A stretch of DNA of 64,000 nucleotides from Psammoneis japonica (lineage: Eukaryota). Shown here piece after piece: positions 3,677 to 64,000 of the stretch (the first letter of the stretch is position 1; the number at the start of each line of letters is the position of its first letter). The stretch covers positions 372,001 to 436,000 of the forward strand of contig QPGO01000014.1 of assembly GCA_008632985.1 (NCBI GenBank), in the 5' to 3' direction. The notes under the pieces were generated by a model. The model was not told where the DNA came from and made no database searches. It worked only from the letters and a program-made list of their open reading frames with translations. The translations under genes and the position numbers were made by a program.

Positions 3677-3699
3677 ATGTTTGTGTTCATTTCATGTGC

Positions 3700-21384: not shown

Positions 21385-21559
21385 CATTTTTTTTCCGCGG
21401 TGGCCTCCCTGCTGCGCATTGCCCCCTTGTTTGATGGCGCATTGGGCATGGACACTTGTCGTGTCCTGTGTCTGGTCTCTCTGTTTCCCCACATCATCCC
21501 TGTTCTTTGGTTTGATCTGTCCCATTTTCTATGTTGAGACATCACAGATCAGGGGAGGG

Positions 21560-21755
21560 TGTCAGCCTGCTCATCCACATGTCGTGTGATGGACAGACTG
21601 GATGCGGATGATGGCCAGACCATCTAGATAGACGAGCAGATCTCTCTGAGATCTGCTTCTCACTTTCTCATCTGCTGGCACTCGTGTCATCACAGTCCTG
21701 GTGCTTTGGGGAGTCTTTCACACCTCTGTCACTGTCGACCTTCGGCATTCTGTCA
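21560..21755 (+). repeat. 3' LTR of Copia-1
   Basis: Direct repeat of 14543-14738, preceded by the PPT and followed by the TSD. Confidence 0.97.
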
Positions 21756-33792: not shown

Positions 33793-34341
33793 AGCATACC
33801 GTAGGGACAAAGTAGTGTGGCGGGATGGACCGGGTTGAATTCAAACGAAGAAATTCATGCATATCAGTAGTTGTCGTCTACGAAGCAATAACGAGAATAT
33901 CATTGCGAGGCAAATTCCTTGAGGAACAGGGCATACCGGTACCGCATCCGTCACTTGGGATACAGTCTACCAGCATATTTTTTATTATAAGACGAATTAC
34001 AAAATAAATACCGGTAGTATCCGATGAAGGCTCCTCTAGAGGGCTCTGGAGGCTACCGCTATCAACAACCAGCATCGCATGCGTGCGATAATGTTTCCTA
34101 GCTAGAGGAGTAGTCTAGACTAGAAAAAAAAATACAAAACATCCTAATTGCTATCAAACAACTTTCGGACTCTATCATTCCTCATTGCTCATAGCAGTCC
34201 ACCAAATTAGAACGTCTGTAAAGCTAAGAAATCTTCAATTCATACAAGCCTTCGAATTCGTGCAGGGCTTTTCCACAAGAGCCCTCTAATCCCCGTTGCA
34301 GAATGATAACAATCTCGTTCCCATCATACTTCACAAGCTCC

Positions 34342-35358
34342 CTAAATCGTTGCGAGAAAGGCTTTACCTGCAAAACAAAGGGTTACACTCAGCCATTTTC
34401 AGGCACAAGTTGTTTCAACATGGCAGCACTCTCAAACATAAAAATACTTACGCATCTCCACCGTGAATGGATCCATGTCGTTGCTCAAATTGAGCTCGGC
34501 CAACAAATCCGAAACCACAGAAGCGTCCAGAGAAGGTTCGCAGCTGACCATTTCGTATTTCTCTTGATCGTTGAGTCTGAGGTGAAAGGTAAATTTACGA
34601 TCAGGATCAGCCCTGTCGAGCTGGGTAAACACCCTTTATGAGCAAAAACGAAAACCGCGACAAAAGGTATTGAGTTCTTGCAGTTCACGATACACGGCAT
34701 AGCGTACAGAACATAAAAGGAACGTCTTTATACTTACCAAACAAGACCGTTTTTCCCGTGTTCAAAGTCTAGACCTGAGCATTGCTTATAGTACACGAGG
34801 CCATTCGTCAAATCATCCACCGTTGTTTTCTTAGATTCTTCAACGAGCTCTTTGTTGCTTCGTACCTTCTCTGCACGAGCCTGCTCTTTTTCCTCTTCAT
34901 GGCGGATTTCTTAGGCATAGACAACAAGTGATATAGTTGAGTAACGAATATTGAGAGTAAGCGGTGTATAAAGTAAGAGCTCTGATTTTTGCTGCAATTT
35001 ACGTACCTTCAAAATTCGCCTCTTTCTTCTTTAGCTGCTCTTGGAGTTGCGCAACTTCCGCATCTGCCACTTTCTGCTGCGCAAGCAACTCAATTTTTGC
35101 TTTGACAATTCCACCCTCTTCTTCTGAGTGAGCCTGAGAAAGTCCCCGTTCCAACTGAACGGAGGCAAGGGTATCCTCGAGTCGATTGATTTCGCCTTGA
35201 CGGTCCGTCACGAGCTTGGCTTGTGCTTGAGCAATCTCGTCAACGCGAGCCTTTTCCCGATCAATGTATTCATCGAATTTTTTACGACTCCTTGCCAAGT
35301 GCGCCCTTAGATTAGCAGTAAGTGCAGCGGGTCCGTCGTCGTTGTTGTACGGCGGCAT
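34342..35358 (-). CDS. SPC25: Spc25, copy B (4 exons)
   Basis: Closely similar to 571-1614 with the same intron positions. Ends 'RKAFLATI*'. Confidence 0.8.
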
Positions 35359-35599
35359 GGTGGGTGTTGGTTGGTGGTGCGGTGGGCTTGTGCTCAGTGC
35401 GTCCGGTCCTTGATGCTTTGATGCTGTCGATGGTCGACTTCCAACTTTTGGGCAAATCTGGGCAAGTGCAAAATAACGACAAAGGCCAGCTACGGCGGTT
35501 TTGTATGAGTGGCTACATAAAATAGACTGTGCATGCTTAAGTACAAAGATAAATTTCTGCGCAAATTCAAAATTCAAAAACGACATGCGCATGTCGTGC

Positions 35600-38500
35600 T
35601 TCAGTTTGTTGGAGTTGTGTTAGACATCGATGAATGTCATGGAGATCTTGCAGTCTTCTGCTGGTGTGCTTGGGTCAATTGCAGACAAGGAGCACAGTGT
35701 GGGTTGTCGATTGGCTGAGACACAGAGCAGAGATGCGGCATGGCGAGCAAATTGCAGTCATGACTCTTTTTTGTGCTTTGGCTGTCCCACATCTTGTCGT
35801 TGGTCATTCTTCACTCATTTGACCATTGATCCAGCTGCAGACATGAAGCTTCAAAAAATGCTAGACAAAAGTCAACCACACCACAGCCAGCTCACAACTC
35901 ACGACACACCAGTGAGGGCGCTTCCTCAGTGCATCAGAGGACTTCATCGTGACGTTTGTTAGAAGGGCATCTGTTGCTTTGCTGCTGCCACTGCACGACA
36001 AAACATGAAGACAACCCACGTTGACAATGGGGCAGATGCATTGAAAATTTGGCGTGCTGGTGTGGCAAACCAGTGCAGCAGCAACCTGAGGCCAAGCTGA
36101 GTTGTCCCCCCCTCTGATGGGGGACAAGTGGTGGCATGCACAACAATGTTGCCAAGACTCCATGTGGTCCAAGGGGCACGAGCACAAAAACAGAGCAGCA
36201 GCATCACTCTTCCTGGTCAAGGCTGTCAACTGGGTTTTCTGAGCATTGATGGGGGCAAGGAATGGCCAAGCATTTCTTGTGATTGGCAGCGTCGTGACAC
36301 TTCTGTTTTCAATTTTGGCAGTCCAAGCACTTCCGTTGCGATTGCATCAGACACACAGCAAAGTTTCTCTGACACCACACAATTCATGGCCAAAATTTTG
36401 GGTTGTCTGGCTGCAATTTGTCTTCCCTTGATGGAGGAGTTAATTTCTCTCCTGTCTTGAGTCTTTTTGGCTTTTGAGTTCCTTCAGATGGAAGAGAATC
36501 AGTTTGCCTCAACGTCGGCATGGGGGGGGCGAAAGAGAGAGACCATCTTCTTGCTGCTGCTGCTGCTGCTGCTGCTGCCACCACCACTGCTGCTGCTGCT
36601 GCTGCGGACCAAGTGTGCATTTGCGGTTGTCCTCAAGTGACTCAAAGCCCATTGTTTCATGTCCGTCATTGTTGATCAAGCATTGCACCCCACACCCATG
36701 AATCCATGTGCGGGCTCTTCATTGTTGCTCAACATTGCTTTGCTCTCTTCACCACACTTGCATCTGCTGCTGTTGTCCTCTTTGGTGCCATTGCAAATGG
36801 AAAGCCATCTCAAAATTAGAAACGGCAGCAGCAAAAGCAACAGTCATGTGTGTTTGCTGTCTTCACAGTTTTTCAATGACTTGGTTTTGACACACTCCTC
36901 CGAGTGTGCTTCTTGCACGCAATGCGAGGAGGAGAGCCATGCATCATCTGTCCATCGGCGGAACCAAATTCTTGATGCATCTGCACTTCTGTCGGCTGGG
37001 ATTCTGATTGAAATTCTTTTCATGCCACGTTGAAAGCTGGTTGCTTTGAGGATCACAGGCATTGCATGGATGTTGGCCAACCACAGATTGGTTCAGCAGC
37101 ACTTGTTTGATTGTTGTGAATGTGGTTGACCCTGAAACTTCTTGCACTGTTGGTTTCCAGCACAAGTGCACAAGAAAACCTCTGCTGTTTGGTGCACTCA
37201 GCAGATTCAATCTGGGCAGCTTGCAATCTGGTCACTGGTGGTTTTGTGAAAGGCTTTTGACCAGACTGCTGTTGCCACTCATCAACAGATGCTCTCTGCT
37301 TGCATTCTGTTTGAGGTGTTGGTTTGGACTGGACATTCAACCAGCACATCAGTGAGACACTTGGAGCTCCTTGGACATGCGTGAGCTTTGGCTTGTCAGC
37401 TCACCCAGTTGGGGCAACTTAACACATTCTGCACCTCCTTTTGGGGATGCCCAAACTGGAGCAACCATCTGCGGCTCTGACACCTCCAGCACTTCCTTCT
37501 GGACACACAGTCCACACCCTTGATGTCAAGTGCTTTGCTGGACTCCATCAGCCAAACACAGCACTGGCCCCGCCAGATGGGTTCATTGTTGATTTGCACA
37601 TGCTGCCATTTCAGGCAGGCTCTGCTCCACCCAGTGGCTCTCCTGAGTTGGTGCTGGCTGCAAACCTGTCCTCCTGTTGTCTGTTGCTTCTGCATTCATT
37701 GACAATCGCTGCACTCAAGATGCTCAATGGTGGTGTGCAGCAGGTTGCCAAACTGTCTGATGGCACCTCTGCTGTTGTCAGGCCCACCACCCAGGAATGC
37801 CACGGCAGCTGTGGCATCATCCCAGCAACCCTCCTGAATCAGCCTGGTGTGCAATGGCAATCCAACCCACTGCCAACCCTTGTTGACATTCTTGACCCTC
37901 AGAACTGTCAGAAAATGTGGAGGTCAACAGATTCCATGGTCATGTTGAGACCACGTCCCTCCTCTGCTCTGAACAAACTGCCAGGCTCATTCAAGCTGCT
38001 GCCTTGTTCACAGCAGCTGTGACAGGAGACAGCCAGAGGTCGAATCTTGCTGCTGATTGAAGAGGTTCATTTAAGGTGAGCTCCACAAGTCTCATGGCTT
38101 TGCCCCGCTGTTGTTCATCTCAGCCAACCATCCAGCAACTGCCTGTTTCTGATGCAGTGACCAAGACTGAAATTGCAGCCAGGGATCAGACTGTTTTTGC
38201 TTGCAGCACTGCTGCTGAGAGCAGCCCCGACCATTGCAAATCAACAAATTGACAGGCAAGTCTGGTTGCTGGAGGTGCAGAGCTGCAGACCACCTCTGTT
38301 GCAACTCCCAAACCAAAAAAAATGTTTGTTCTGACATGAACAAGCCACAGATCCATGAGAATGGCACCAAGAGCCGTGAGGGTGATTCTGTTGCCACAAC
38401 TGGAGTTGCTCCAATGCTGGCAACCTCCTCTGATCATCTCTCCTGTCTCCCCAGTCCAAATCCAGAGGCAATGACCAGCTTGACAGTCTCATCATTGACT

Positions 38501-39000
38501 CAATCAAGCAATCCCTGGGAGGATCTGATGACAAACATGAGAGCAACTCCAAGACCATCATGACTCTTCACATGCATGTGCGCACAGCCCACATGTCAAG
38601 CAACCTTGTTTCTCAACTGCCCATCCCCGTGAGCAACACACTGCCTCACATCATGCTCCAACTTGGCCTCCCCAACATTGCATTCAACTCATGGCATCCA
38701 TGCCATCATTGACATCAGCATCATTGCTCTTGAATGTGGCAATGGTGGCTGTTGGATGCCTGTCACAAAGGTGCATCCCAAGCTGGTCAAGAGAGCATGA
38801 CCTTTCATGCCAAGAAGGAATGACACTCACCTGTCACACTGTTGGGTGGTGCAGTCCAGAAGGACAAAAAGACCAAACAAGTCAATGTGTCTGCAAATCT
38901 CTCCACAGTGTGTTGGAGTTCTGCCCACCCTGCAACACCAAGAACGGGCATGCAACGTCTTTGAAAATTGCCATTGGAAAAGAGTGTCTCCATCCATTGT
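35600..39000. repeat. Heavily decayed TpA/CpG-depleted block, unidentified
   Basis: Abrupt compositional change at about 35590, TA nearly absent, no recognisable domain. Confidence 0.55.
36552..36605. repeat. Interrupted (TGC)n trinucleotide tract
   Basis: tgctgctgc...caccaccac...tgctgc. The cac interruption is compatible with TG/CA-type decay. Confidence 0.85.
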
Positions 39001-39255
39001 ATCATCGGTACGAGCTTCACTTCGACATGCAAGCTTGTCACGGTGGATTTTGACGACAACGCAGTGGAATCCAATCTGCTCGATTGTGATCCATTTCCTG
39101 TGGAATTCCTCACAGCAGCACATTCAACAATGTTTGATTAGAGCGTCATCTGCAGAAGCAAGTTTGTATACAAAAAAAACGAAGGCAGAGGAGCACACCC
39201 AACACAAGCTATTTCGATTCTGTTTTTTTTTTTTTAGCCAATTACACACTAGAAG

Positions 39256-40712
39256 CTATACGACATGATAATTGACATGAGTTCTTCGTTGAATGCCTTC
39301 CACCATGAGTTCCATTTCAGACGACGGCAGAGCCGCGCTCGGTGGAGCCGATTGATGCGCCTTTTCGGTTGTTGTTGGCAGTCTCTTGCGGACCCGCAAC
39401 GTCTTGAAAATAAGAGACGCAATAAAAAGCACAATGCCAGCAATATGTTGCAGCGTACAGGCATTGTCAAACATGAAGAAACTCAAAAAGAGCGTCGTGG
39501 CTTTTCGTGCCGTCGAAGTAATGGACATGGTGAGTGCCCCAAAATTCTTGGTAATGGCCGCACTGCATGAGGAACCAAAGAATCCCATGGTGGAAAAGAG
39601 CAAAATGACAATCATTTTGGACATCACGGTCCATGTCGGATTGCGGTCCTCCAGGGGCATGTCCATTTCTCCATAGGTTCCCGGTTCCATGAGGAATCGC
39701 AGTCCCGCCCAGAGGTCGCCCTTGACGGCGGCGGCACCGGTAATGGCCACGAGTGCAATCGAGTACATTTTGAAAATAAACTCGTCTTGACCAACCCCGA
39801 AATTGTTCATGATGGATTCGCTCATGTTGGAAATGGCGCCATCGCACAAGAGTGAAACCGTCTGCGTGAATTGAACGAGTGTGTGTTGAACGAGTGTGAG
39901 TGAGTATTCTGAAATAGCCACAAAATACCTATTCACTCCTCTACCGCGCAACACAGTAGTACACTACTACTCACCAACATTATTATTCCCCAATGATGAA
40001 AGACAGCCGAACTATTGGCATCGGCATGCATAAAAATGGCCAACCCCGACACCATCAAAAGCACCACCACATAGTCCACTAGCTTGTACCGTTTCCGTGA
40101 CACCAACACCCCAAACAGCATGGTAAAGACGACCCGACTGCTCTTCATGAGCGTCTTGGCGGGATAATTAATATACTGCATGGCCATGTTGGTCATGCCC
40201 AAATCGACGGCACGTAGCAGTGACAATCCGAGATACAACAAAATGGGCACCTTGGCGTTGGACATTATTGACGATGATGATAATGATTTTGTTTTCTTTT
40301 GTTTTTCATAGACATAGGTTCTTAACAAAAAGGACCAAAAGGTGTATCCACTAAATTGCATGGTTGCCAAGAACAATCCCAACTCTCGGTTGCAAATGTG
40401 AACCGAAATCAATTCTTGTAAAAAACCATAAAGCAAGGAAAATAAAAAGACACCCGTCGCGCACACAATGAATTGTACTTTTCGACTTAGATGTGAAATA
40501 TCCATACCCAACACCAAGACAGGTTCCGATACCAAGTCTTCAAAGAATTCCAAATCGGATTTGGAATTGGGAGCCGACGGTGGAGGAGCTGTAGTGGTTG
40601 TTTTGGTCATGACTCCGGCGGCCGCGTCGGCATCGTCGGGTTTGATGCGATGTCTCATGAGTTTCTTCTTCTTTTTAGAAATTGTTGTTGTGGGAGTTTT
40701 TGGTGTTTGCAT
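39256..40712 (-). CDS. SLC35B3 (PAPST2)-like transporter, copy B, one intron at about 39863-39975
   Basis: Same motifs and intron position as copy A, with diverged termini. Confidence 0.87.
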
Positions 40713-41261: not shown

Positions 41262-43163
41262 ATGGCGGACGACGCTGTTACGGAGGAAGCTGCTCCTGAA
41301 GCGGCAAAACAAAATGAGAAACAGGCAGAGTCTCCTATAGAAGTAAAGGAAGAAGAGGAGTCACCTCCAGAAGAAACGGCGTTAGAAACTACAGAAACGA
41401 CCGAGTCTGCTGCAGAACAACAACAAGATACCAAAAGCGAAGAGACTTCACCTGAACCACCAGCACCACCTCCAGAAGAAGAAGAAGCCAAGCCTGAACC
41501 CGAACTATCCCCCGAACCACCTTCTGCTGCTCCTCCTTCATCATCCTTTCATACCGTCAATGACATTTCCCGCCAAACGACACATGGCAAACTCCGTGCG
41601 TACGAAGCCCGTCGTCGTTCGGCGTACACGTCCAAACTCGAATCGTCCGCCTTGTATTGGCGTTCCTTTCGTGATTTACTCCATGCCAGTGTCCATGAAA
41701 CGGCACGTGCGGAACGATTGGTATTGGGTAGTGCCAAGGCCAATCAATTGTACGCCAATGCCATGCAAGCGACGCATGATGATTCCTATCTCGATGATAA
41801 AGGCCATGTGGTGACGGATCCACGCAAACAAAAACGTCTTGCCGAAGTGCGATCTTCTGTTGCTTCAGCTGAAAAATCCAGCATGCTATCGTCCTTGGTG
41901 GAGTCACAAGCCGTCTTGGCGGAACGGTTTGGTGAAAATAGCAAACACGTGTCCACGGAAATTGCAGTGGAACTGACGGCTCTACGGTCGGATTTGCAAA
42001 TTCAAGTTCAAGGCATGGAGCGACTCGGCAATGCCATTGTTTCCGAATTGGAAACGACCGAAAAAGAAGTCAAGGGAGCGTGGGGTAAGTAGAGAGAAAG
42101 TAGCTTTTTGTATATGATTGCTGTGTATGATGTGTTTTTACGAGTACTTACAATTGATGTTATCTTGATTATTTTTTCAGAATCCTACTATTCCATGGCG
42201 GCCAAGTGCATGGGCAGCGTCGTCACTCCACAACCACAAACCAAACACCGCACCGACAGTGAATCGTCGGTCGACACGACGGCGCTTGCACACTACAGTG
42301 ACGTTTGGGTGGTGGAAATGCAATACCGCGTCGCGGTCGCATACCAGAGCATGGCATGGGAAAAGGGTTCCACCGAGTTATCCAAGTTGTTTCGTGAAAT
42401 GAAACAGGCCGAATGTGAACGCCGCGTCAAATTACGAGAAGTCCTCATTGCCTTTTTGAATCGACAAGAGAGACTCTTTTTGAGTTTGCCATCGATTCAA
42501 ACTCCCGTTTTAAAGGATTTGGTGGGCAAAAAGGTGGATAACGAGACGATTGAACAAAATGTTCAAGATTCGATTCGTCAACGAGCAATCGTGTTGCAAC
42601 AAGAAGAAGCCAAACACGCCAAGCCCAGTCCCCGCAACGGACCGGGCCTGTCGGCGGTCAATGACGCCGATGCCAATTTTAAATTGGAATCGCCTTTAAC
42701 GAGTGAACTCTTGTGCAAGGCCAAGGTGATTGAACGCAAAACCACCGGCATGATGGCATCGTGGAAAACAACCCTGGCCGTCGTGACGGCCGATTCCTTT
42801 TTGCACTTGTTTGATTTGCCCTCGTCCAAAGCCCATTCCGGCAGTGCTCCCGAAGTGGCATTTCAATCCCTCGTTCCCGCCGTGGTGGTGCCCACGGCGG
42901 AGAATGTTAAAACAAAATCCTTTCTCAAGGGATGGAGTGAACATTTGACGCCATCGGAATCGGTCGTGTTGAGCAATTGTACCATTACTTCGTCGGGTAA
43001 TGGAACGTCGTTTGATGTGGTGGAAACGGTGCACAATACGGGTGCGTCCAAAATGTTTGGCAAAGTGTCAACGCGCAAATTGCAACTCAAGACACTGACG
43101 GAACAAGAAACTAAGGATTGGATTGAAACCTTGAAAGCACAACAATTTTCACGAACGTGGTGA
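41262..43163 (+). CDS. Coiled-coil (BAR-like) plus C-terminal PH domain protein (intron 42086-42180)
   Basis: Acidic/Pro-rich N-terminus, long helical core, PH-like 'WKTTLAVVTADSFLHLF...ETKDWIETL'. Confidence 0.7.
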
Positions 43164-43757: not shown

Positions 43758-44895
43758 ATGAACACCCATACCATTATCATCAACTCCGAGAAGGAATCGC
43801 CTTCCTCGAGAAAACGAAGCGATAATACTCGCCGTCCGACTTTGATGGCACGATTCCACAGGGAGGACCTCGATCCGTTAGCTCTACCCACTGTGCCACG
43901 CAGAAACACAAAAACGAAACGACCAATGAGAAACCTCCAAGATGGTGATGACGATTTTGCTCAGGAGATTCCACCAACTGTGTGTTCCACAAGGACCAAA
44001 ACAACAAGGACGACCTTCTGTTGCAAAAGAAAAAGGAGGCTGCATGCCACAAGCATGGCGAGAGGTGTACTCTTCAAGAAGTTCCAGTCACGCATCCGTT
44101 GCCTCCCACTGCAAACAAGGAAAGCAAGAAGAAACAAAATCGTCTGCCCATTGTCGATGGACTTCACGAGGCGAGAGCAAGAAGGAAGAACGCCAAGAGC
44201 TCCACGACAAAGGGAGCTGCTGCTGGCCTGACTAGTGCTTCAGAAGCGCTGAGTGAGGCTGCGTTAATGTCGGAGGAGCAGCGATACGCGCGGCCAGGAG
44301 CTTTTCGGATGGGCGGCGGCGGCGAATCATCATCCTTGCAAGCACCCGAGTCTGAAGCATTTCTGTGGATTCAAACTCAGAAAGAGCGCCTGTGGTCGAA
44401 AACAGCCGCCTCGATGAAAATGTCATTGAAGCCACGATTGCACCCGATGTGGATGAAGCCGTGGAGAACGCACTCCAAGAAGAACGGCAGCGACAAGAAG
44501 CAATGGAGCGAGAAAGAAAAGGCAAACTTGTCCGTGCTACCAGAGTTGAAACAGAAGGCAAGGCAAGAAGGAAACTGATCGCTAGAGTGCAGCAGTCGCT
44601 CTGCTGTTGGTTGGAATCGTTTTAGCCACTACATTGACCCTTCTTCTACCCAAGGATGACACACCGACACCAACACCCGTTGTCGGCAATGCCACAAACA
44701 ACAGCACACCCGAAGAAGAAGAATTCCCGGACGTGAATCGGACGTGGGAGAAATTTGGACAAGACATTCACACCCCCGTTCCGGCACTTGAAGACGGATT
44801 CGGCGCCTTTGTTTCATTGGCCGAAAATGGTGGAGTGTCTCTTTCGTCCAGCACGCATCGTCTGGCGGTGAGTTCCACGGGATCATCGGGATTTC
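43758..44895 (+). pseudogene. 5' part of a single-pass membrane protein gene disrupted by Copia-2 (start approximate)
   Basis: Frameshifted ORFs with an 'RPGAF' motif, TM-like 'LVGIVLATTLTLLL', and the start of the repeat region 'WEKFGQDI...FGAFVSLAENG'. Confidence 0.65.
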
Positions 44896-45120
44896 TGTTA
44901 CAATGTCCAGAGAATGGACAACAGACAGAGTGTGTTGATGTCACAATGGATGTGGGGCGATTCTAGGTGCTAGTGTTACAGCTGCCAAAGAGAAAATTGT
45001 GAGGAGAGGAGACGCTCTTCGTCTGCTCTCCTAGTTTCCCGAGTGACGTTTGCACTGATGACGCAAGTCTTTGCAACGGCGGGTCACAATGACTGTCTTG
45101 ATGATTTGACAATCTTCACA
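44896..45120 (-). repeat. 3' LTR of Copia-2
   Basis: Direct repeat of 52088-52313 with TG...CA ends. Confidence 0.97.
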
Positions 45121-45157
45121 CTCCCTCTCATTGTGTCTTGCAAGTTAAAGTCTAAAC

Positions 45158-48100
45158 TCACCAACCCATCACCAGAGGACGTAAGGTCTCTAGGATCTCA
45201 GCCGCAACCGGCTTAGTGAGACAATCCGCCAGTTGGTCCTTGGTGTCGATGTCGTGTGTCGAAATTTCTTTTCGAGTGACACAGTCGCAAAAGTGGTGCA
45301 ACTTGACATTCAAGTGCTTGGTTCGTGGTCTGCACTTGTGCACGCGCGCCATCTCTGGTGCCCCGCCATTGTCTTCAAACACTTTGCAATGGATCTTGGG
45401 CGTGGACGTGTTGAAAGGGAAGCCGTGTCGCTTGAGTTCATTCAGCATTTCCATCAAGGGCACAGCTTCTCGCAGAGCACACGACAAGCCTGTGCATTCA
45501 GATTCTGTGCTGCTTGAGGCTGTCTTGGTTTGCAGTTGAGATTTCCAAAGAATGGGACAGCCCGCGTAAGAAATGACACAACCGTGTCGAGAACGTGCTG
45601 CACCTCGGTCTTGGCTTGCCTCTCGTGGGTCCCAATTCCCGCTAAAATCTGCATCCACGTAAACCTCCAAGTCCTTTCCCTTTGCAGGTTTCAGGACTGC
45701 ACCCTTGTCTCTGGTCTTGTGTGAACATCTGCCAAGCCACCGCATGGCTTTGGCGTGCTCAACCTTGGGAGCTGCAGTGAACCGTGCGCATTGGTGGGTG
45801 ATGCACGCCATGTCGCTTCAAGTGCATTTTTCCAAGCAGCTCAGCTTGCCAACAACCGATCGGCAGTTGAAGGAATCATCAAACGGCTCCGAATCGGAGT
45901 GCCTTAATGGCATCTTGGAGGATGCTGCCGGAGTGTCCTTGGGTGCGGCACTTGGTGCATCCAGTCGCAAGTCCTTGAGCATCTGATCGATTGGGTGTGG
46001 TTGCGTCAAGTGGACCGTGCCATCGTTCTTCCTCACGATGTTGATGCCGAGAAAATCCTGTGTGTCCCCTTCCACAGTAATGTCGAGTTTTGCCTCCTTG
46101 AGTTCCTTGATGATCTGATTAATTTCTCTCTCATCAGGACCGGCAATCAGCGAGTCGTCTGTGTGTAGAAGGCAAATGGTTTTCCCGCGATAGAACACGC
46201 ACTCATCAACCTTGGACTGCTCGAAACCAAGCTTGTTGACGAGCTTGTTGACCAGACATTTGTTCCAAACTGTTTTTGACCGTGTGCGTTTCGACGGAGC
46301 TTCAGGACGTAATCCTTGGTGTTGCCGTCGACTAACTCGAAGCCCGCTGGCATTTCCATGTAGAGCTCCTTGTCTGCCGGCGCTTGAGGGAAGGCTAAAA
46401 CGCAGTCCAATTGCTTGGAGTGCCACCCGTTCATTGCTGTCAGGGTGAGTGACATTTGAATTGAGTTTCGTGATGCCACCGGTGCGCACGTCTCTTCATG
46501 ATCCTTTCCTTTCCTCATTTTTGAACCGTCGACATTCAAGCGAGCCTTCCACTTCTTGACCTTGCGAGTCTTGATGTCGCGCTTGCGCTTCATCTGCCAC
46601 ACCGCTGGCAGCACCTTGCTGTCTCTTTTCACCTGTGATCGTGGAATGATGGAGAAATTGCCATTTTCCATTTGATCCGTTACCTCCTTTTGCATGGCTT
46701 TCAGGAACTGCACGCGATCCGGTTCCTTCACAGCCTGGTGCATGTACATGGTGTCTGGATCTGCTGATGCTTTGTGGGCAAGGAGGGGATTCTTGTCTTC
46801 TCTAAGTTCTTGTGAGTCTTGGGGATGCATTGCTGCCAAACACAATGTCTCACCCTCGACATCGTTTCTTGTTTCGGAACTGATTTCGGCCGTCATGGCT
46901 TCTGTCAGTCTGCTGACCGGTCGGCTCTTTCGCCCTGAGCGAGTCACTTTTGGTGCATCGGCACCGTTTCGTGTCTCGTCAGACTCGCGCTCTCCTGGAG
47001 CCACTTCTAGAGATTCAGTCGCTGGCGTAGGTCCACCCTCATCTTCCTGAGGTTGCATGTGTGGACTGTCTTGCCTCGACGCCACTTGGCCAGTGGCCAC
47101 TGCAGTGTTTCCGCTCTGTTGCGGTCCCGGATTTAGGTCAGCCCATTGAACTCGTTTTTGTCGTTTCTTGCCTCGCCTGGCTCCCTCTGAATTTGCTTTC
47201 CGCTTCTTCGTGGTTGGAGCTGGTGTGGACGCCGTTTTGGCTGCTCCACTGGTGTCAGCTTTCGTCGCCTCCCTCTGAGCTACGAAGCCGGCTTTGATTT
47301 GCCATTGCGAGTCCAGCTTGTCTTGCCGCACCGTGTGGAAGGAGGGATCAAACTTGACATGGAATTGTGGGCCAACTAGAGCAGTCGCTCGATCCAGCAC
47401 GAGCGCCACATTCTTTCCATGCACTGGGCTTTGGCCTAGATGGACTCCGACCCTTGATCGTTGCTTCCATTTGTGGTGTGGCAGGTTGGATTGCAAGGCG
47501 CTGTCAAGAACGTACACTGGGCATCCGAAGGGTTTCCAGTGTTTTGGGTTGGCAGAGACTCGGGTCTTGGAGAATGTTTGCATGGGGGACAACCTGTCCT
47601 TGTTTTGGAAACTCGGTGCGTTGTTAATCGCGTCGTTGGCCATCCTTGTTGCACAAGGCCACAGATTCGCTGTGATTGCTTTCTTCCACCGGCTTTGAGC
47701 GTGCATTGACATGCTCCTGGCGAGTTCTTGGAGCTCGCGCATGCGACGCTTGGCCAAGCCGTTCTGGTGGTGAGCGCCCACCGCTGCGAAGGTGAGCCGT
47801 TGTCCTTGTGATCGACATGCAAACACCCAGTCGTCAGCCTTGAAGATGCCATTGTCTGCATGGCAGGCTTCGACTGTAACGCCACACGTCTTGGCGCATT
47901 GCTTGAAAGCTTGTTTCCCTTCTAACGTCTCCGCTGCCGATGCCGTCTTTTGCAGGTGCACGTGTCCCATTTTGGAGTGTTGATCAACGTGCACCGTAGC
48001 ATGCTTGTGCCGTTTGGTGGTTGGCCATCCGGTCATTTGAGCAATCAACCCCGGTGCAGGAGATGCAAGTTGGTCTACAGAGACGACTTGGCCTGGGCGT

Positions 48101-51100
48101 GTGGGTTTTTCCGTCGGTTGCTGGTTGCGTCGTGTCTTGTCTCGCCACTTGCGCTCAGCAGCCTTGGCATGCAAGCATGCAGAGCAGACGGGTACATTGC
48201 ATTTTGCCAGCTTCTTTGGCAGCATGCCCAATCTTGCCATCCATTGCAGTTTTGTAAAACTCATGTGGCCGAATTGTTGATGGCATCATAGGAGCAGTGA
48301 TGCCTCGGCAGAGCCTTGGCGATCCTCTTCATCTTCCACCACTGCTGGTGGCTTGACGGCTGCTCCCTCTGAGGTGGAACTTGGCATGGTGCCCGTGTCT
48401 CCCTCTTGCTTGCCATCCAACGGTGGTCCGTCTAAGTTGAAATCTGCTGCCGTTGACCCGTCAATTTCCCCAGGTGCCAACCCTGAGTCTTGCGACTGGT
48501 CTTGGTTCATTGGTTGCCATTCATCACGCGGCGCGTCAGCATCGCATTCAACCTCAGCATCATCATCTTGATCCTCATCGTCGCTCACGACTGCTGCCTC
48601 ATTGGCTGGCACAGGATCCTCGACTTCTTCTGCTGGGTCGACATCCGCCTCCGCACAGAATGCTTCATGCTTTTGGCATCCGGGTGCTAGATGAAATGTA
48701 GCCACGTTGGTCATTTCACTCAGCGGTGTTGTCAGCCGGTGTTTCTTCTGGTTCCAATGGAGGGTCACCTGCCTTGAGTCAGTCTTGCTGCCCGTGCCTT
48801 CCTTGGGTTTGCTGTCCCTTTGGGTCTTAGCCCAGTGTTGAGGGCTCAGCAACCTGACCTTCCCACTTGGTGCGTAGAACAAATTGGGCATCTTGAACTC
48901 ATGCGTCCTGCCCTCGTCGTCGTTCCATCTCCATGGCAGGGCGCCGATCTTCACCCCGGTGGTTTTCGAACCGCCAAAACCTTTTGTGGTTCTGTTGCAG
49001 TCTCGTAATTCACCAATGAAGTCTTCCGCGCAATCGGACATGCAACCTGCAGCCCGATTGTCAACCCCGACTGGTCCTGAGTCAGTGTCGAAGGTCACCG
49101 CATGCTCCATGATGCTCTTGTTTTGAGCCTGCATTGCGACCACCACCATGGCCAGTGCTGCGGCATGGTGTCGTGTTCGCCTGGGTCTCTTGAGTTTGTC
49201 CATAGATTGGTGGAGTCTTCGAATTCTCCCTCTTCTGGACAAGTCGGTGTTGGTGTCGATCGCTTCAATGAATTGTGCCACTTGTTCTCCGACCTGGCGC
49301 ATCTTGCTGGTCAAGCAGCGGCAACCCTTCCGCAGCTTGCACCATCTTTTCTTCTTGGGTGCGCAGTGCGGGGAGTGTCCTGGGTTGTCGTTGCAGTGGA
49401 ACATGAGGCAGATGATTAGGACCGCGGCGGATGGAGAGCAGTGAGCGCAGGCCATGGTGCGATCTGTGATGATGAGTGCTAAAACAATGTTCATGTAATT
49501 GCAGGCTATCGCCTGCCATGCGAATGTAGCCGTTGCTTTAATGAAAGCGCAGCACAACATTGTGAGGTCGCCAATTGCATGTCCATCATCACAGCAGTTG
49601 CAACTGTGGCTGTGCTCTAGGAGTCATTCGGATTCGTCGTCTGATGGCTCCTTGTCGACTGCTGCCTTGTGTGCCTTCGTAAGCTTGAGACGTCGTTTGC
49701 CATCTTGTTTGCGGCAGAACTTCTTCTCCCGTTCGTTTCCGCTCTTGCCATTGGCCGCTCTCTTCTTGTTCTCATCCGGGTCACACAAACAATTCTCTGG
49801 AGTGTGCTTGCGCCACTTTCCAGGGCATTTCCCTCCGACGTCCTTGTGGCAGTAGCAGCATTTTACACCGTTCCAGTGCCTGGGCTTGGAGATCATGTCC
49901 TTGGTTGGGCGCAAGTTGTCCTTCATCCATTTGGGCATGTTTCGCTTGTCACCATCCTTTCCTTTCCCACGCTTGTCGTCCTTTCTGGTGTTCTCAGCAG
50001 ATTCGTGCTTCTCAGCTCTTTTCTCAATGCCTTCGACTTTGGCTTCCAGAGCAAGTGTCTTCTCTTCTTCCTCGCCAGGCGCGCACTCCACTTCTTCTTC
50101 TGAACCAAATTCTTGCACTCATTGTCCGCAAGCGTCATGAGGTGATTTGGCGCAATGTCCTTGCCGTCCTCGCGTTCCTCTTGCTTGTTGCCAATGCACT
50201 TGGTAAAGTTCTTGTCCAAAGCAGCGAGGCATCCTTTGAGTGAATTCGTCAGGAGATCCTCTGTGGTTTCGCCACGAGACCTCAGCGCAGCGAGAAGGAG
50301 AGCCACGTGCTGATTGAACTTCGTGACATCGTGACCCATCGTCGGCAAGTGTTGGTCAAGCTCAGCGAGTTTCGCACGGATCGTGCTCATGGTTGCATTC
50401 GTGCCCAGGTGCGACTCTTGAATGATGACCTTGAGGAGCAAACATCCAGAGATCTTGTCTCCGATCTTGCAGGACGCATCGTGGACATGTGCCTTGTCCT
50501 TCCCAGCCTTGGAGATTGAGTTGATCAGACAGTGTCCGAGCATGGTAGCATCTTGAGCTGCACGGCATGGATTCCTGATGTACGACTCCTCGTGTCTCTT
50601 GATGCGTTCCATGCTGATCTCACCATAGTTAGTGAGCAAGTTTGAGTACGTCGTGTCCGGATCTTCAGGGCGATCCAGGAAACTTCGAAGTTTCGAAAAA
50701 TATTTAAGAGATTCCTAATTCCTATCAATATATCTTTACGTGGACCTCGTGTAGGATGGACAAAAGCTTCGAACATTGTGAAATTTCTTTCTCTATTGCC
50801 CTTTATACTGCCCCAAAGAAAGTTCGAAGTGTTCGAAGTTGTTCGAAGTGTTCGAATACTTCGAACACTTCGAAGTACTTCGAACACTTTCGAAGTTTAT
50901 AATTCATAAATAAAAGTAAGGCAGGGAGACGAATGATGATGTCACGATGACATCCGTAGCCGAATGATGTACGTACTGCTGGTAGGGCCCTAGTACAACA
51001 CGCGCGATGCGGTACCGGTATGACATCTCACGTTGTTGTTTTGTGCTCTCTTCTACTCGAGTCTCGAGCATCTACCGGTATCAATGAGATGATGAGATAC

Positions 51101-52059
51101 GGTACGTACAATCGAAGCGACAAGTACAGGCAGCTACGAGATGATGTACTACAAGCTTATTACGCGCGCTTGTGGCTAAGAGTAGGCCTACGTAGGTTTT
51201 CTACGCCAAAGCACGACAAAACAACACGTGAATCCTTTGCCGTCGTTCATTTGTCAACCACGAAGAATTACCAATCCAATGAGACATATATGATCCGCAA
51301 GTACCTCATTGATATAGCTGTACCCAAATGGCTTGGTAACTATTCCGGGTGGGCCCGAACTCGTTCGACGGAACGTGTCATCGTGGTGGTGTCGCGTGCC
51401 AAAAATCGGTGGTTGTCAATTCGTAATGATATATAAATGACTAAATAAATAATTAAAATTCAACTTGTTCGAACACTTCGAACTTGTTCGAATAAGTTCG
51501 AACTTTGTTCGAATAAGTTCGAAGTGACCAAAGGGCAATATGAAAAGTTCGAAGAATAAGTGACTCAAATCAAAATCTTTGGAGGGCAATATGTTTGCGA
51601 CAAAACTTCGAACACTTCGAACAATATTCGAAAGCTTCGAACACACAACATATTTGTTCGAACTTTTATCTATTGCCCCTTGTTTATAAAGTACCAACAA
51701 CCTACGAGCTCTGCACGTAGAATAATTTGCAGAAATGTCATGGAATATGGAATCTTTCGAAGTCTTCGAAGTTTCCTGGATCGCCCAGGGTCTTCAGGTG
51801 TCATAAGGATGCCTGTCGTCGGGTCATTCCATCCGAGCAGGCTGGCCCTGGTTTCAACATTCTTGAGGAACTGAAAGAGTTCGCCTGGAGTGCAGTCGAA
51901 TGTATCTCCACTTAATGCTTCCGAGCCATTTTCGAACAGCTTTCGTCCAGCACTCTTGCGAAAGTCAACTGCTCCCGTAATGGCTTGAGCTGGAGCAAGG
52001 GCGAACGGAATGTCCTCATCGGACGTTGAGGACAATGATGCACTTGAAACGTCTGACAT
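45158..52059 (-). pseudogene. Copia-2 gag and pol, disrupted; gag is split by the MITE
   Basis: gag from ATG 52059, protease 'GVDNRA', integrase 'HADNGIF...HQNGLA', RT 'KARLNVDG...HTDDS', RNase H 'YVDADFSG...EDN...DQLAD.LTK'. Confidence 0.93.
50669..51785. mobile_element. Non-autonomous TIR element (PIF/Harbinger-like MITE, 1117 bp) nested in Copia-2 gag
   Basis: Perfect 22-bp TIR GGCGATCCAGGAAACTTCGAAG, 3-bp TSD CAG (50666-68 and 51786-88), subterminal TTCGAA arrays. Removing it restores the gag frame 'ILMTPEDPEDPDTTYSNLL'. Confidence 0.92.
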
Positions 52060-52087
52060 GATTTTCTTCTTCAGCGCAGAGGAAGCG

Positions 52088-52313
52088 TGTTGTGATGTCC
52101 AGAGAATGGACAACAGACAGAGCATGTTGACATCACAATGGATGTGGGGCGATTCTAGGTGCTGGTGTCACAGCCACCAAAAGAGAAAATTGTGAGGAGA
52201 GGAGACACTCTTCGTCTGCTCTCCTAGTTTCCCGAGTGACGTTTGCACTGATGACATAAGTCTTTGTGACGGCGGGTCACAATGACTGTCTTGATGATTT
52301 GACAATCTTCACA
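52088..52313 (-). repeat. 5' LTR of Copia-2
   Basis: Direct repeat of 44896-45120. Confidence 0.97.
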
Positions 52314-52319
52314 GATTTC

Positions 52320-53563
52320 GGGAAACTGACGGCACGGTGGCAGTCTACGAGGTCCTTCGATCCGGAGCAGTCTCTCAAATGGGACAGACTATTGTCGGTG
52401 TCCCCGGACACACGGCAATGGGTGCGCTATCGAAAGATGGGACCAAGCTTGCCGTGACCGAATCATTGACCGACATGAATGCCAATTGGACAGGCCAAAT
52501 CACCGTCTGTGAACTGGTCATGGATGGAAGGAGAAGGTTGGACACCGTGGTCATTTTTGGAACGGCTTGCCCCAAATGTGTCTGGAAGCCAATGGGAGAG
52601 CCGATCCACCCAGTCGATCAAGTGTTTGAAGACAAAGGGAGGAGTTGTCACGCTGTTGCTCCATCCGAGAACGGAGTGACTCTGGCTGTTGCATCTCAAA
52701 TGGCGAGCCATGGCTACATTGGAAAAGTGAACCGACGAAGCCCACACATCCGACGACGAGGTAGAAACCTCGACACGATCATTTCCGGTTCTTCCTCCGT
52801 CATCAACCAAATGCAAGTTTGTCGACATCAAGAGAACGGATCCTGGACACAGCTCGGAGAGACCATCCCATTAGAGCCGGTTGCGGACAAATCTGGCCAT
52901 TCTATTTCGATCAGTGACGATGGCTCCACCATCGCTCTTGCCGAAGACCATTCACTTGGAGGCCCCAGCAAGGGAACGGTCCAAGTCTTTTCCCGTTCCG
53001 AACAAGATGGTGATTGGGCCCAACTCGGTACGAACCTCGAAGGCATCTTTCCTTGGCAGGGTGATTACTTTGGAATGCGAGCATCCTTGTCGGGAAACGG
53101 ACGACGGGTCGCAGCGTCCGCGATTGGTCCTTTTTCCGAAGGTGGTGCCGCCGTCTTTGACTGCGACGACACTGACCAAGACTGGCACCAGGTTGGCGGG
53201 GATCTCATTGGTGACCCCAATGGCAGCAACGACGTCATTGACCGTATCGCCTTGTCCAGCAACGGACGAATGGTTGCCATTGCGTCGACGTGGAGGACCG
53301 ACAGCTACGTGCACACGCACGAATTCCGTGGCGGGATCTGGAAACAAGTCGGAAAGAAAGCATCTGGATTGACTGATGATGATGGGCGATTCGGGGACGG
53401 CATTGCCCTTTCTGCCACCGGTGTGCTTATGGCCGTTGGGAGTTCCGCGAATTTGTACAATGGTGGGACACCGAATGTCCGCTTGCATTCGCTGGAAATC
53501 GACGAGTGGCCTCGATCATTGTGTGTGGCACTCGCACTGCACATGATCCAAACATTTAACTAG
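52320..53563 (+). pseudogene. 3' part of the disrupted gene: beta-propeller/FG-GAP-like repeats
   Basis: Repeats of the form 'W.Q(L/V)G....G...G.S.S(L/I)S.DG..(L/V)A'. Joins 44895 in frame ('GSSGFRETDGTVAVYE') once Copia-2 and one TSD are removed. Confidence 0.8.
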
Positions 53564-61428: not shown

Positions 61429-64000
61429 ATGCCTCGTCATATCAAAGGAAGGAACAAAAACTTTCATTCAGTAGCGCAATCTGAATCGAGCTCGTCGGAT
61501 CCTTGTGGTCATGCTGACGAAGCTCCGGAACCGCGACCTGTGGCTCTTCATGTGGTGGGAAAGTCTCATTCTCGGTTTGTCGAGAGTCTTAGACGGTCAA
61601 GAGAAACTGCAGTTGGGAATTTTGGTAATACTCCACTAAAAACAGGAGAGTGGGAGCCGCTACCGAGCAGAAAGAAAGCACCAACGACGACGACAAGTGC
61701 CGTGGTTTCACCAGAGGCAGATGTGAGGAAGAAATCCGTGAAATTTAACCAACGGAATTCTGAATATAATCTCTCGCAGACACCAAGTACACGCGATGAG
61801 TTAAACAGACCGGCATCTGAGAAACGCCCAATCAATCGAGTTAAGGAGGAGTTTCAGGGTCCCAAGCTTTCTCGTGATGATTTGGAACGAATGAGAAGTT
61901 ATTCAGGCACATCACGGATGAAGCCGGGGTTGACCCTGATTGACCTGCTAGAACCGTCGGCTTTCAATGGATCACCCTCTATGGTGGGGATGGTTGTCAA
62001 GATGAAGAAGCGAAGAAAAGCACCGGAAGGGGTCTCATTTTCCAGGAAATCCAGAGATTTCAAATCCACTCCCGAGCTTCGACAGAGGAAAGAGAAGCCA
62101 TCTCATTTGAAGAGGAGGGCCAAGTCTTCTCCGATACTAGAACACATCACCCCTCGCAGGAGAGAAGCTCGACCTGCCAAAGTTTTCGAGGAAGAGACCA
62201 GTGCTCCTCCGTTGACCAAAGAGTTGTTGAAAGCGAATGCCAGAGCTGTGTCGAAACAGCTGGATCTGCAAGATGCTGTCGCAACGGTCATTCTCTCGAG
62301 GTATCAGAACCATGTAATTGAATCGCAAATAACAGATCGGAAAAGGGCGCAATGGCACTCTTGCTACAGAGGTTACTTTGTGCGCCGAACAAACAAGAAA
62401 GAAATTGACGTTTTGAGAATCTCAGACGGTGTCATGCACCAGGTGTGGACCGGATACTTCAAGGACATTGACTTTCACTTGGACTTGATTGATATCATTA
62501 CCGTTCAGAGCGTAGTCCGACGACAAAGACCGAGAGCAGACTTTCTGGAAAAGAGAAACGCTGCGATTAGCATACAGAGCTCAGCACGCCGTTGGATTGC
62601 TGAAGAGAACTACGATGCGTTGCTTGAGGAACGTAGTAGGCAGCATGAAGAGGATCGTGCGGCAACTCGTATCCAGGCAGTGGCGAGAGCATGGGTTGCA
62701 ATTCGGCAGGTTGAAATCTTGAAACAGATTCAGGAGTTTGTTGAAGCCGAACGAGTAGCTAGGGCCAAGGATGACAAGGCCGCAGTAGTAATCCAATCGA
62801 GTTGGCGCGGATATTGTGGTCGCGTTGATTTCTTGAGTGCTATTTTGTCCGCAGTGCTTATTCAGACCACAGCGAGGCAGTGGCTTGCGCGTCGTGAAGT
62901 CAGACTGCTGAGGATTAAAGAAAGGAGGCAAGTGGAGAAAGAAAAACAACGTGCAGCTCATGAAAGGAACAAGATGATAAAGAAAAGAGAGAGGGCGGCA
63001 ACGTTGATACAGAGCACCTGGAGATCTCACTCTTGCCAGGCCAATTACCTTGCCGCAGTACTGGCAGCCATAATAGTCCAGTCTTGCATCAGGCGTTACT
63101 TGGCTAGCCGTGACTATTCGACAAAGGTCGAGGGCGCTGCGAAGATCCAAGCGCTCTCGCGTGGTATCTCAGGGAAGAAAGAGGCTGAAGAGTTACAGGA
63201 GAGAAATGTTGCATCTCTTCCTTCATCAAGAGCGGCAGAAGACATGCAATCTGAAGGCACGGAATCTCTTTATACTACAACAACAGCTGCAGAAGGCGCT
63301 CAACCTGGAGGAACAGAGCCTTTGTTAGCGGCAGAAGACATGCAATCTGAATGCACAGAGTCTCTATACACTACAACAACAGCTGCAGGCACTCAACCTG
63401 AAGCATCAACAGCGGCAGAAGACATACAATCTGAAGGCACAGAATCTCTATATACTACAACGACAGCAGGAGAAGGCACTCAACCTTACGGAACAGAATA
63501 TCTATATCCTACAGAAGAAGCAGAAGATACGCAATCTGAAGGCATGGAATCTCTATATCCTACAGCAGCGGCACTAGACACGCAATCTGAAGGCACAGAA
63601 TTGCTCTGTACGGCTACAACAGCAGCGGAAGACATGCGATTTGAAGGAGCAGAAGTGGCGCATATTGGCGCTCAACCGCAGCCGTCGACTGCAGCCGTGT
63701 TCGCTGTCGCAAACCTGGCTAATCCCAGAAGTAGCGATTCGCACTTGGTTCAAGGGGCTGCCAGGAGAGTTAACGGAAGGGAGGAGCAAGAGAAAAAATC
63801 CAATTGCGCCACTTCCATCCAGTCTGTTGCAAGGGCCTTCTTGGCTACGCGAAAGTACAGGAAAGTCATTCGTAGTGTCTGTCGGTTGCAAGCTGTGTAT
63901 CGCGCTCAGAAGATCCGCGATGCCGTCAGCCAGCTCCAGCAACGCCAGCGTGCCGCTACCTTGATTCAGTGTAACACGAGGGGATTCTTGACCAGATTCA
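61429..64000 (+). CDS. Multi-IQ-motif calmodulin-binding protein (ASPM-like IQ array), runs off the window
   Basis: Open frame from ATG 61429 with about 10 IQ-like motifs (IQSSARR, IQAVARA, IQSSWRG, IQTTARQ, IQSTWRS, VQSCIRR, IQALSRG, IQSVARA, IQCNTRG). Confidence 0.8.
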   Translation, partial: MPRHIKGRNKNFHSVAQSESSSSDPCGHADEAPEPRPVALHVVGKSHSRFVESLRRSRETAVGNFGNTPLKTGEWEPLPSRKKAPTTTTSAVVSPEADVRKKSVKFNQRNSEYNLSQTPSTRDELNRPASEKRPINRVKEEFQGPKLSRDDLERMRSYSGTSRMKPGLTLIDLLEPSAFNGSPSMVGMVVKMKKRRKAPEGVSFSRKSRDFKSTPELRQRKEKPSHLKRRAKSSPILEHITPRRREARPAKVFEEETSAPPLTKELLKANARAVSKQLDLQDAVATVILSRYQNHVIESQITDRKRAQWHSCYRGYFVRRTNKKEIDVLRISDGVMHQVWTGYFKDIDFHLDLIDIITVQSVVRRQRPRADFLEKRNAAISIQSSARRWIAEENYDALLEERSRQHEEDRAATRIQAVARAWVAIRQVEILKQIQEFVEAERVARAKDDKAAVVIQSSWRGYCGRVDFLSAILSAVLIQTTARQWLARREVRLLRIKERRQVEKEKQRAAHERNKMIKKRERAATLIQSTWRSHSCQANYLAAVLAAIIVQSCIRRYLASRDYSTKVEGAAKIQALSRGISGKKEAEELQERNVASLPSSRAAEDMQSEGTESLYTTTTAAEGAQPGGTEPLLAAEDMQSECTESLYTTTTAAGTQPEASTAAEDIQSEGTESLYTTTTAGEGTQPYGTEYLYPTEEAEDTQSEGMESLYPTAAALDTQSEGTELLCTATTAAEDMRFEGAEVAHIGAQPQPSTAAVFAVANLANPRSSDSHLVQGAARRVNGREEQEKKSNCATSIQSVARAFLATRKYRKVIRSVCRLQAVYRAQKIRDAVSQLQQRQRAATLIQCNTRGFLTRF
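63232..63650 (+). repeat. Coding tandem repeat, about 6 units of 'AAEDMQSEGTESLY(T/P)T'
   Basis: Variants of gcggcagaagacatgcaatctgaaggcac recur near 63232, 63328, 63412, 63520, 63570 and 63625. Confidence 0.85.

Follow-up and report, generated by a model that had tools for sequence, protein, structure and literature searches.

The two long terminal repeats (LTRs) of a retrotransposon are made from one template, and the question raised by this locus is which process has made the LTR pair of one diatom element differ by transitions only. The element, here called Copia-2, occupies positions 44896-52313 of a 64,000-nucleotide stretch of the Psammoneis japonica genome (contig QPGO01000014.1, positions 372,001 to 436,000), which is referred to as the window. 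A first-pass annotation of the same DNA had noticed that the LTR differences obey a rule shared with an unrelated element in the opposite orientation, and had attributed this to a host-encoded process rather than to an element-specific error of reverse transcriptase (RT). From the evidence presented below, it is very probable that a host process converts the A:T pairs of TA steps (TpA) to G:C in integrated mobile DNA, with a slower decay of CpG alongside.

The Copia-2 element and its long terminal repeats

Copia-2 belongs to the Ty1/copia retrotransposons, is dead, and lies in the nuclear genome of a diatom. Its parts are as follows; no strand is assigned to the target-site duplication (TSD).

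44896-52313, minus strand: Copia-2, a dead Ty1/copia element with the TSD GATTTC
44890-44895: left copy of the TSD GATTTC, identical to the six bases at 52314-52319
52314-52319: right copy of the TSD GATTTC, matching the left copy
44896-45120, minus strand: 3' LTR, 225 nt with TG...CA ends, aligned with 52088-52313
52088-52313, minus strand: 5' LTR, 226 nt with TG...CA ends
45121-45132, minus strand: polypurine tract, sense AATGAGAGGGAG, adjoining the 3' LTR and read from the sequence
45158-49560, minus strand: broken gag-pol frame with an integrase SH3-like domain followed by RVT_2

The order of domains, integrase before an RVT_2-type RT, is that of the Ty1/copia group. In a single frame, SH3_retrovirus (integrase C-terminal, aa. 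239-306) lies upstream of RVT_2 (aa. 547-679), Pfam matched RVT_2 with E = 2.6e-17 and 1.5e-11, and PF13976 and PF07727 were found in the homologues of Copia-2. Direct LTRs with TG...CA ends, a short TSD and a polypurine tract are further hallmarks of the group that Copia-2 possesses; no primer-binding site was recognized in the element. Two in-frame stops, both TGA (45818-45820 and 48286-48288), and a frameshift near 46226-46271 interrupt the reading frame, and another copy of Copia-2, found in a public-run contig, has 10 additional bases behind 46269. The only named relatives of Copia-2 are from Fragilaria crotonensis.

The LTR boundaries given in the first-pass annotation were exact, as was the GATTTC on each side, and every difference that it had listed was recovered: TACA/TGTG, TG/CA three times, TA/TG, TA/CA, CG/CA, CGCA/CATA, CA/TG and an indel in a run of A. 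In total the pair differs by 16 substitutions, of which 16 are transitions and none is a transversion, and by one indel column, giving a divergence of 7.1%. All 16 differences are located in pyrimidine-purine (YpR) dinucleotides, which take up 112 of the 225 LTR positions; the probability of this by chance is about 1.4e-5. They are also clustered, since at least seven adjacent pairs of differences among 16 random sites would be expected with P = 5e-6. Sorted by class, the aligned dinucleotides are CA/TG (5), TA/TG (2), TA/CA (2), CG/CA (2), TA/TA (2) and CG/CG (6), and the 3' LTR as it stands contains 5 TA, 8 CG, 26 TG and 17 CA. The extra A, at 52179 in the 5' LTR, is missing from three contigs of a public sequencing run, X1.

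The second element named in the first-pass annotation bears out the claim of a common rule:

14543-21755, plus strand: Copia-1, a Ty1/copia element unrelated to Copia-2, with 196-nt LTRs at 14543-14738 and 21560-21755, the TSD TTTCA and the polypurine tract CAGGGGAGGG

The LTRs of Copia-1 differ at 13 positions, all of them transitions (13/13), with four CA/TG doublets. Both LTR pairs are found within intact TSDs and thus the changes were made after integration. Older repeats within the window are without this pattern of differences. A comparison of 558-1604 with the reverse complement of 34334-35371 gave 66 transitions, 55 transversions and one CA/TG doublet, and a comparison of 30719-31160 with 39404-39846 gave 47 transitions and 75 transversions.

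Just outside both ends of Copia-1 is a 160-nt direct repeat (14366-14526 and 21827-21984, 89% identical) with mixed differences, 10 transitions and 5 transversions. Copia-1 is therefore bracketed by the two copies of a repeat older than itself.

The CA/TG doublets may be considered in terms of two possible ancestors, TA and CG. In the first case, a host process acting after integration would change the A:T pairs of the palindromic 5'-TA-3' step to G:C, leaving TG when one strand is hit and CA when the other is hit. About three quarters of the TA steps in each LTR and in the coding interior would have undergone conversion, and as the two LTRs would be hit independently, TG and CA would often stand at the same ancestral TA as a doublet. 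A slower decay of CpG to TpG or CpA would proceed in parallel, and the two would drive old mobile DNA to a state with no TA or CG. In the second case, the decay of methylated CpG would account for the whole pattern, with doublets arising from CG by C>T changes on opposite strands in the two LTRs. Differences of the CG/CA and CG/TG type do occur between LTRs, and CGA>TGA stop codons are present, both as expected from methyl-CpG decay.

The two ancestors lead to different proportions of the LTR classes. In the model used, every TA has a probability p of conversion in one LTR, independently of the other LTR, and half of the sites hit in both show no difference and so are invisible. For both elements pooled, the counts TA/TA 2, TA/x 7 and CA/TG 9 fit p = 0.79 (G = 0.94, P = 0.33). 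The corresponding model with a CG ancestor (CG/CG 10, CG/x 4, CA/TG 9) was rejected (G = 16.5, P = 5e-5). When Copia-2 is taken by itself, p is 0.73, in agreement with the separate estimate from tyrosine codons described below (15/21 = 0.71). One of the invisible sites was made visible by other copies: at 44986 both LTRs of the window read CA and four other contigs read TA. Methyl-CpG decay directly explains 2 of the 16 Copia-2 differences, namely the two CG/CA sites, and the remaining 14 are TpA events. A related proposal, that CpG methylation restricted to nucleosome linkers lies behind the heterogeneity among sites, was rejected because CpG sites that vary and CpG sites that are intact are mixed along the LTR.

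Direction of change in the coding interiors

Since a pairwise comparison of LTRs cannot separate CG>TG/CA from TA>TG/CA, the changes were polarised in the coding interior. Tblastn was used to align homologues from the protein database (120 for Copia-2 and 89 for Copia-1, none more than 59% identical) with the DNA, and a codon was taken as conserved when there was at least 80% agreement among at least 30 homologues. The Sec3 gene of the window, whose product shares 70-78% identity with diatom proteins (Grammatophora, Nitzschia inconspicua and a Bacillariaceae metagenome-assembled genome), served as a host control.

Among 410 conserved codons of Copia-2, 53 deviate, including 4 transversions, 6 ambiguous cases and 6 multi-step changes. 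The remainder are made up of 18 A>G (16 after T), 12 T>C (11 before A), 5 G>A (all 5 after C) and 2 C>T (both before G), such that TpA>TpG or TpA>CpA accounts for 27 of the 37 unambiguous single-step deviations. Copia-1 gave a very similar result. Of its 466 conserved codons 70 deviate, with 10 transversions, 4 ambiguous and 11 multi-step cases, and with 19 A>G (18 after T), 14 T>C (14 before A), 8 G>A (6 after C) and 4 C>T (2 before G). When A>G or T>C changes are set against G>A or C>T changes and against transversions, the counts are 30/7/4 for Copia-2 and 33/12/10 for Copia-1. In both elements the A>G and T>C changes lead away from TA, with the T nearly always located before an A and the A after a T. 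Host Sec3 was spared: 46 of 547 conserved codons deviate (12 transversions, 10 ambiguous, 17 multi-step), with 1 A>G (after T), 1 T>C (not before A), 5 G>A (1 after C) and no C>T, so that A>G after T accounts for 1 of the 46. An exception to the sparing of host-like sequence, a depleted frame with FG-GAP-like repeats, is described in the next section.

Tyrosine codons, all of which contain TA, give the clearest view of the change. Conserved tyrosines are now cysteine (TGY) or histidine (CAY) at 15 of 21 positions in Copia-2, at 17 of 21 in Copia-1 and at 1 of 24 in host Sec3, where 22 of the 24 tyrosine codons are retained. The reverse is not seen. Conserved cysteines are retained at 10/10 (Copia-2) and 9/9 (Copia-1) positions and conserved histidines at 18/18 and 23/23, and among these 60 conserved codons of the two elements, a change of cysteine or histidine to tyrosine was found at none. 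The change thus runs from TA, and the first-pass claim that the variant sites descend from TA is supported, with some CpG sites in addition; that the ancestor does contain TA there was judged from the coding interior together with the LTR class model.

Three tyrosine codons (47655, 46165 and 46284) read cysteine or histidine in the window and have the alternative one in another copy from run X1. A cysteine/histidine pair at a conserved tyrosine codon represents a CA/TG doublet at a site whose ancestor is known. The conserved ancestor that such partners share at one step is TAY and not CGY, which argues against methyl-CpG decay as the sole cause, as does the observation that about 15% of conserved CGN arginine codons were hit (3/19 and 5/34) compared to 71-81% of tyrosine codons. 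Calculated from these fractions, the per-site rate of the TpA process is roughly 7-10 times that of CpG decay. In support of some methyl-CpG decay, the G>A changes after C and C>T changes before G make up 7 of 7 such transitions in Copia-2 and 8 of 12 in Copia-1, and deamination of 5-methylcytosine probably underlies this minor component. As an explanation of the whole pattern, methyl-CpG decay is highly improbable. The relative rates also bear on one reconstruction of the first-pass annotation, in which the ancestor of TACA/TGTG was TACG. While that ancestor is parsimonious, TATA is equally so, and it is favored by the roughly 7-10-fold higher TpA rate.

The changes are found on both strands. 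Read in the sense of each element, TA>TG and TA>CA stand at 24:17 in Copia-2 and 26:18 in Copia-1, and there were no strand-coherent tracts along either element (runs tests, P = 0.88 and 0.19). Balanced strands without coherent tracts argue against RNA editing, against editing of one cDNA strand and against long processive events. A-to-I editing of element RNA by an ADAR- or ADAT-like enzyme, or of cDNA during reverse transcription, with the changes fixed at integration, would have in its favor that adenosine deaminases with RNA as substrate typically prefer 5'-U/T, as stated in a recent preprint (bioRxiv 10.64898/2026.01.13.699255). However, one template yields both LTRs, so editing of RNA cannot make them differ, the TSDs are intact, the numbers on the two strands are similar, and relic blocks and a flanking frame that is not part of a transposable element (TE) are depleted as well. 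Editing at the RNA or cDNA stage is accordingly given very little credence. A specific version, cDNA editing in one cycle with A>G in the sense of the 5' LTR and T>C in that of the 3' LTR, was rejected because the differences are mixed between the LTRs and not sorted by strand.

Copies of the locus were also searched for in public sequencing runs. In contigs of run X1, 59% of sampled 31-mers from 44700-52500 were found exactly, and 121 contigs were at least 99% alike; runs X2 and X3 contain almost none of the stretch, and no X3 contig aligned. Differences between X1 copies and the window, assessed on 40 of 906 difference rows, comprise 33 events: 7 CA<>TG doublets, 11 CG>TG/CA, 4 TG/CA>TA, 2 TA>TG/CA, 3 TG/CA>CG, 4 other transitions and 2 transversions.

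These data bear on whether the pattern could be an artefact of assembly or base calling, in which modified bases of TEs are misread according to strand, so that the consensus has TG or CA in place of TA and CG. The pattern is restricted to DNA in which methylation is expected, and strand-dependent miscalls at a palindromic step would yield TG or CA randomly. With a converted site about every 25 bases, however, 59% of exact 31-mers in X1 would be unreachable if the true sequence were TA, and the other X1 copies show the reciprocal doublet and not TA (the 7 CA<>TG events above). Near-100% miscalling would be required in blocks with 1 TA per kb. Furthermore, the same signature in the chlorarachniophyte Bigelowiella natans came from Illumina mutation-accumulation data, according to the preprint. 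An artefact is thus very unlikely; a small probability is kept since X1 may be the assembly's own data.

Extent of the depletion and what is spared

A two-state segmentation assigned 41.6% of the window to a TpA-depleted state. Five depleted blocks match TE or relic DNA and have TA observed/expected ratios (o/e) of 0.04-0.20; in the remainder of the window the ratio is 0.53-0.81. The blocks other than Copia-1, and the element nested in Copia-2, are listed here without strand.

43901-53550: depleted block comprising Copia-2 with about 1 kb on either side, broken only by the nested element
2951-7300: old relic with TpA and CpG nearly gone; 5001-6000 has 1 TA, 1 CG and a TG+CA o/e of 1.97
12901-14542: old relic beside Copia-1; 13001-14000 has a TA o/e of 0.02 and a CpG o/e of 0.12
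35551-39150: old relic with a TA o/e of 0.04 and a CpG o/e of 0.26
50668-51786: nested non-autonomous terminal inverted repeat (TIR) element of 1.1 kb with perfect 23-nt TIRs and TTCGAA subterminal repeats

The three relic blocks at 2951-7300, 12901-14542 and 35551-39150 are complex, non-repetitive and saturated with TG and CA, and have no similarity to each other. No Pfam match was obtained for 16 frames taken from relic blocks and flanks (the 6 longest in 2951-7300 and 5 in 35551-39150). They are presumably very old targets of both processes. The effect of the depletion on stop codons is pronounced, with TAA and TAG at 2.0 and 2.3 per kb in the depleted blocks versus 9.2 and 8.5 elsewhere, a four-fold drop. 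The in-frame stops of both elements, five of them in Copia-1, are all TGA. The guanine-plus-cytosine (GC) content of affected DNA is raised to 0.51-0.55. Change of this kind is restricted to mobile and relic DNA, and because two unrelated Copia lineages on opposite strands and the relic blocks are alike in it, a host process is indicated. Together with the intact TSDs, this supports the first-pass view that an element-specific RT error is not the cause.

Within the block at 43901-53550 the TA o/e is 0.19 for 43901-50600 and 0.20 for 51751-53550, and the CpG o/e is 0.79-0.94. The depletion extends into both flanks of Copia-2, which form one plus-strand frame (44607-44895 and 52320-53563) that is continuous, by the coordinates of the open reading frame, once Copia-2 and one TSD copy are removed. 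The product of this frame, an FG-GAP-like repeat protein, has 9524 relatives at E <= 0.001; the Atlas match was weak (score 0.94, recognition sub-threshold). Its TA o/e is about 0.2 and its CpG is normal. Of five tyrosine columns that are at least 60% conserved, the homologues being repeat proteins, 1 is kept, 3 are cysteine or histidine and 1 is phenylalanine. At flank position 44771, the window has CA and one X1 contig has TA.

The same flanks provide an empty site. In a contig from run X2 (1,330 nt, depth 11.6), 44761-44889 is joined directly to 52314 with a single GATTTC and 0 mismatches. The insertion of Copia-2 seems to be still polymorphic in the sampled material despite an LTR divergence of 7%, which suggests that the process is fast. 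Since the empty-site contig matches the window over 316 flank bases, the depletion of the flanks did not spread from Copia-2 after its insertion.

The nested TIR element stands apart from its surroundings. Its TA o/e is 0.81 (50601-51750) versus 0.19-0.20 around it, and its depth in run X1 is 500-2941 versus about 56-90 in the flanks. It is flanked by an 11-nt direct repeat with one mismatch, GG[A/G]TCTTCAGG. The element may belong to a Mutator-like family of miniature inverted-repeat transposable elements that is currently active or spared by hypermutation. Either the element is of very recent origin and the process acts episodically, or some kinds of DNA are distinguished from others by the process.

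An inverted segmental duplication of about 2 kb (379-2437 and 32757-35585) has a divergence of 12%, about as many transitions as transversions and a normal TpA content.

Since this duplication is untouched, as is the high-copy TIR element, the process is not triggered by copy number alone. Targeting would rely on something other than copy number, and the action would be fast and perhaps episodic.

A further 750-bp segment at 42201-42950 has a TA o/e of 0.23 with normal CpG and is located within a host-like frame (42114-43163) that has a weak match to a PH domain. Its depletion may be due to chance, or the segment may be a small target.

Chemistry, known counterparts and consequences

Most likely, an enzyme deaminates adenine in DNA, and the hypoxanthine so formed would be read as G. 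An alternative accepts the post-integration spectrum as real and assigns it to another chemistry, for example error-prone or biased repair at TpA, or a lesion or modification specific to TpA (such as one linked to N6-methyladenine) in silenced chromatin. The window itself identifies no enzyme, and the random choice of strand resembles independent single-site events more than processive editing of a single strand, both of which are compatible with such a source. On the other side, exclusive A>G and T>C changes with a strict 5'-T are expected of a context-specific deaminase, and the authors of the B. natans preprint infer deamination too and name an ADAT2-like candidate, without a test. Repair or lesion chemistry is considered unlikely, although it is less improbable than methyl-CpG decay alone, RNA or cDNA editing or an artefact.

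Several points weigh against adenine conversion by the host as set out above. The empty site is represented by one contig with a depth of 11.6, and the differences between copies were assessed on 40 of the 906 rows, in which 44986 is the only directly informative LTR site. Polarisation is limited to conserved codons with homologues that are at most 59% identical, and the ancestral states of individual LTR sites come from the model and the coding region and not from an outgroup LTR. The chemistry of adenine deamination is reached by inference alone. Finally, the unmutated TIR element and 2-kb inverted duplication do not fit a simple effect of region or of repetition.

The closest counterpart is found in the B. 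natans preprint (Mettrop et al., bioRxiv 10.64898/2026.01.13.699255, 2026). Two integrated viral regions acquired 231 mutations in mutation-accumulation lines, and 230 of these were A>G or T>C, all at TpA. The regions mutated about 1000-fold faster than the remaining genome, with these mutations in some lines only. An ADAT2-like deaminase was proposed and is untested. In both organisms the changes are almost solely A>G/T>C at TpA, giving TpG or CpA by strand, and are confined to foreign DNA. B. natans also has clustered 1-kb windows that are TpA-depleted and enriched in CpA and TpG, RT and DDE domains are enriched in its depleted coding sequences, and the process there is apparently not constitutive. 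The two cases differ in that the mutations in B. natans, a rhizarian, are de novo and mainly in giant-virus and virophage inserts, whereas those in the diatom, a stramenopile, are fixed differences whose main targets are LTR retrotransposons and unidentifiable relics. The diatom DNA is also nearer to saturation (TA o/e 0.04-0.20 versus 0.45 in the nucleocytoplasmic large DNA virus region of B. natans) and has the coupled decay of CpG.

Repeat-induced point mutation (RIP) of ascomycetes is likewise a host-driven, transition-only and dinucleotide-specific inactivation of integrated mobile DNA on both strands. RIP, however, makes C>T changes, mostly CpA>TpA, which create TA and stop codons and lower GC, whereas here TA steps are lost, TAA and TAG codons disappear and GC goes up. 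TpA is depleted (o/e 0.04-0.20) and not enriched as it would be under RIP. RIP is triggered by duplication, and here the 2-kb inverted duplication and the high-copy TIR element are untouched. The process is thus the chemical mirror image of fungal RIP. Deamination of 5-methylcytosine at CpG, giving TpG or CpA, is a minor component here that has left old relics CpG-free, but it cannot yield tyrosine to cysteine or histidine changes or a loss of TpA. Vertebrate APOBEC enzymes acting on the cDNA of LTR retrotransposons provide an example of deaminase-type hypermutation in LTR elements (Knisbacher and Levanon 2015, PMC4866542). These enzymes target C and make G>A changes on one strand during reverse transcription, in contrast to the A in TpA that is changed here on both strands after integration.

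No diatom report of TpA hypermutation was found in the open-access literature searched, nor by terms within Maumus et al. 2009 (PMC2806351), and the B. natans preprint was the only report of the signature in other organisms found in that literature. TpA hypermutation is otherwise known from a single description, in an alga unrelated to diatoms, and the diatom case adds a second, distant and experimentally accessible lineage, in which the enzyme might be found. Since the signature is also present in a rhizarian alga, a shared system would be old and common to the stramenopile-alveolate-rhizarian (SAR) group. A wider proposal may be put forward tentatively, with somewhat more doubt than conviction: that diatoms carry a natural DNA adenine-editing defence which recognizes mobile DNA otherwise than by copy number and erases TA while an insertion is still polymorphic. 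It would be an old, SAR-wide counterpart of RIP working in the opposite chemical direction, and the enzyme would be a TpA-specific adenine editor acting on double-stranded chromosomal DNA.

If true, a recent and mechanistically unexplained mutational defence is extended from one chlorarachniophyte to the diatoms, which are major phytoplankton. Gene knock-outs are made in at least one diatom model (Phaeodactylum tricornutum, PMC9998398). With a second lineage, the responsible gene could be searched for by comparing lineages. The dating of diatom retrotransposons by LTR divergence would be grossly inflated, given that 14 of the 16 differences are TpA events in an insertion that is seemingly polymorphic. 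Relics without TA or CG would evade homology-based repeat annotation, and their loss of TAA and TAG stops would result in long false reading frames. The process would also raise GC, contrary to the usual mutational bias.

Two other sets of repeats are present in the window. Two genes of UAA-family sugar-nucleotide transporters, at 31136-32032 and 39933-40712 on the minus strand, form a direct duplication and are 73-74% identical. At 63224-63674, tandem units of about 90-110 nt are located within a gene for an IQ-motif protein (61429-63999) that is open at its 3' end; these are presumably coding repeats.

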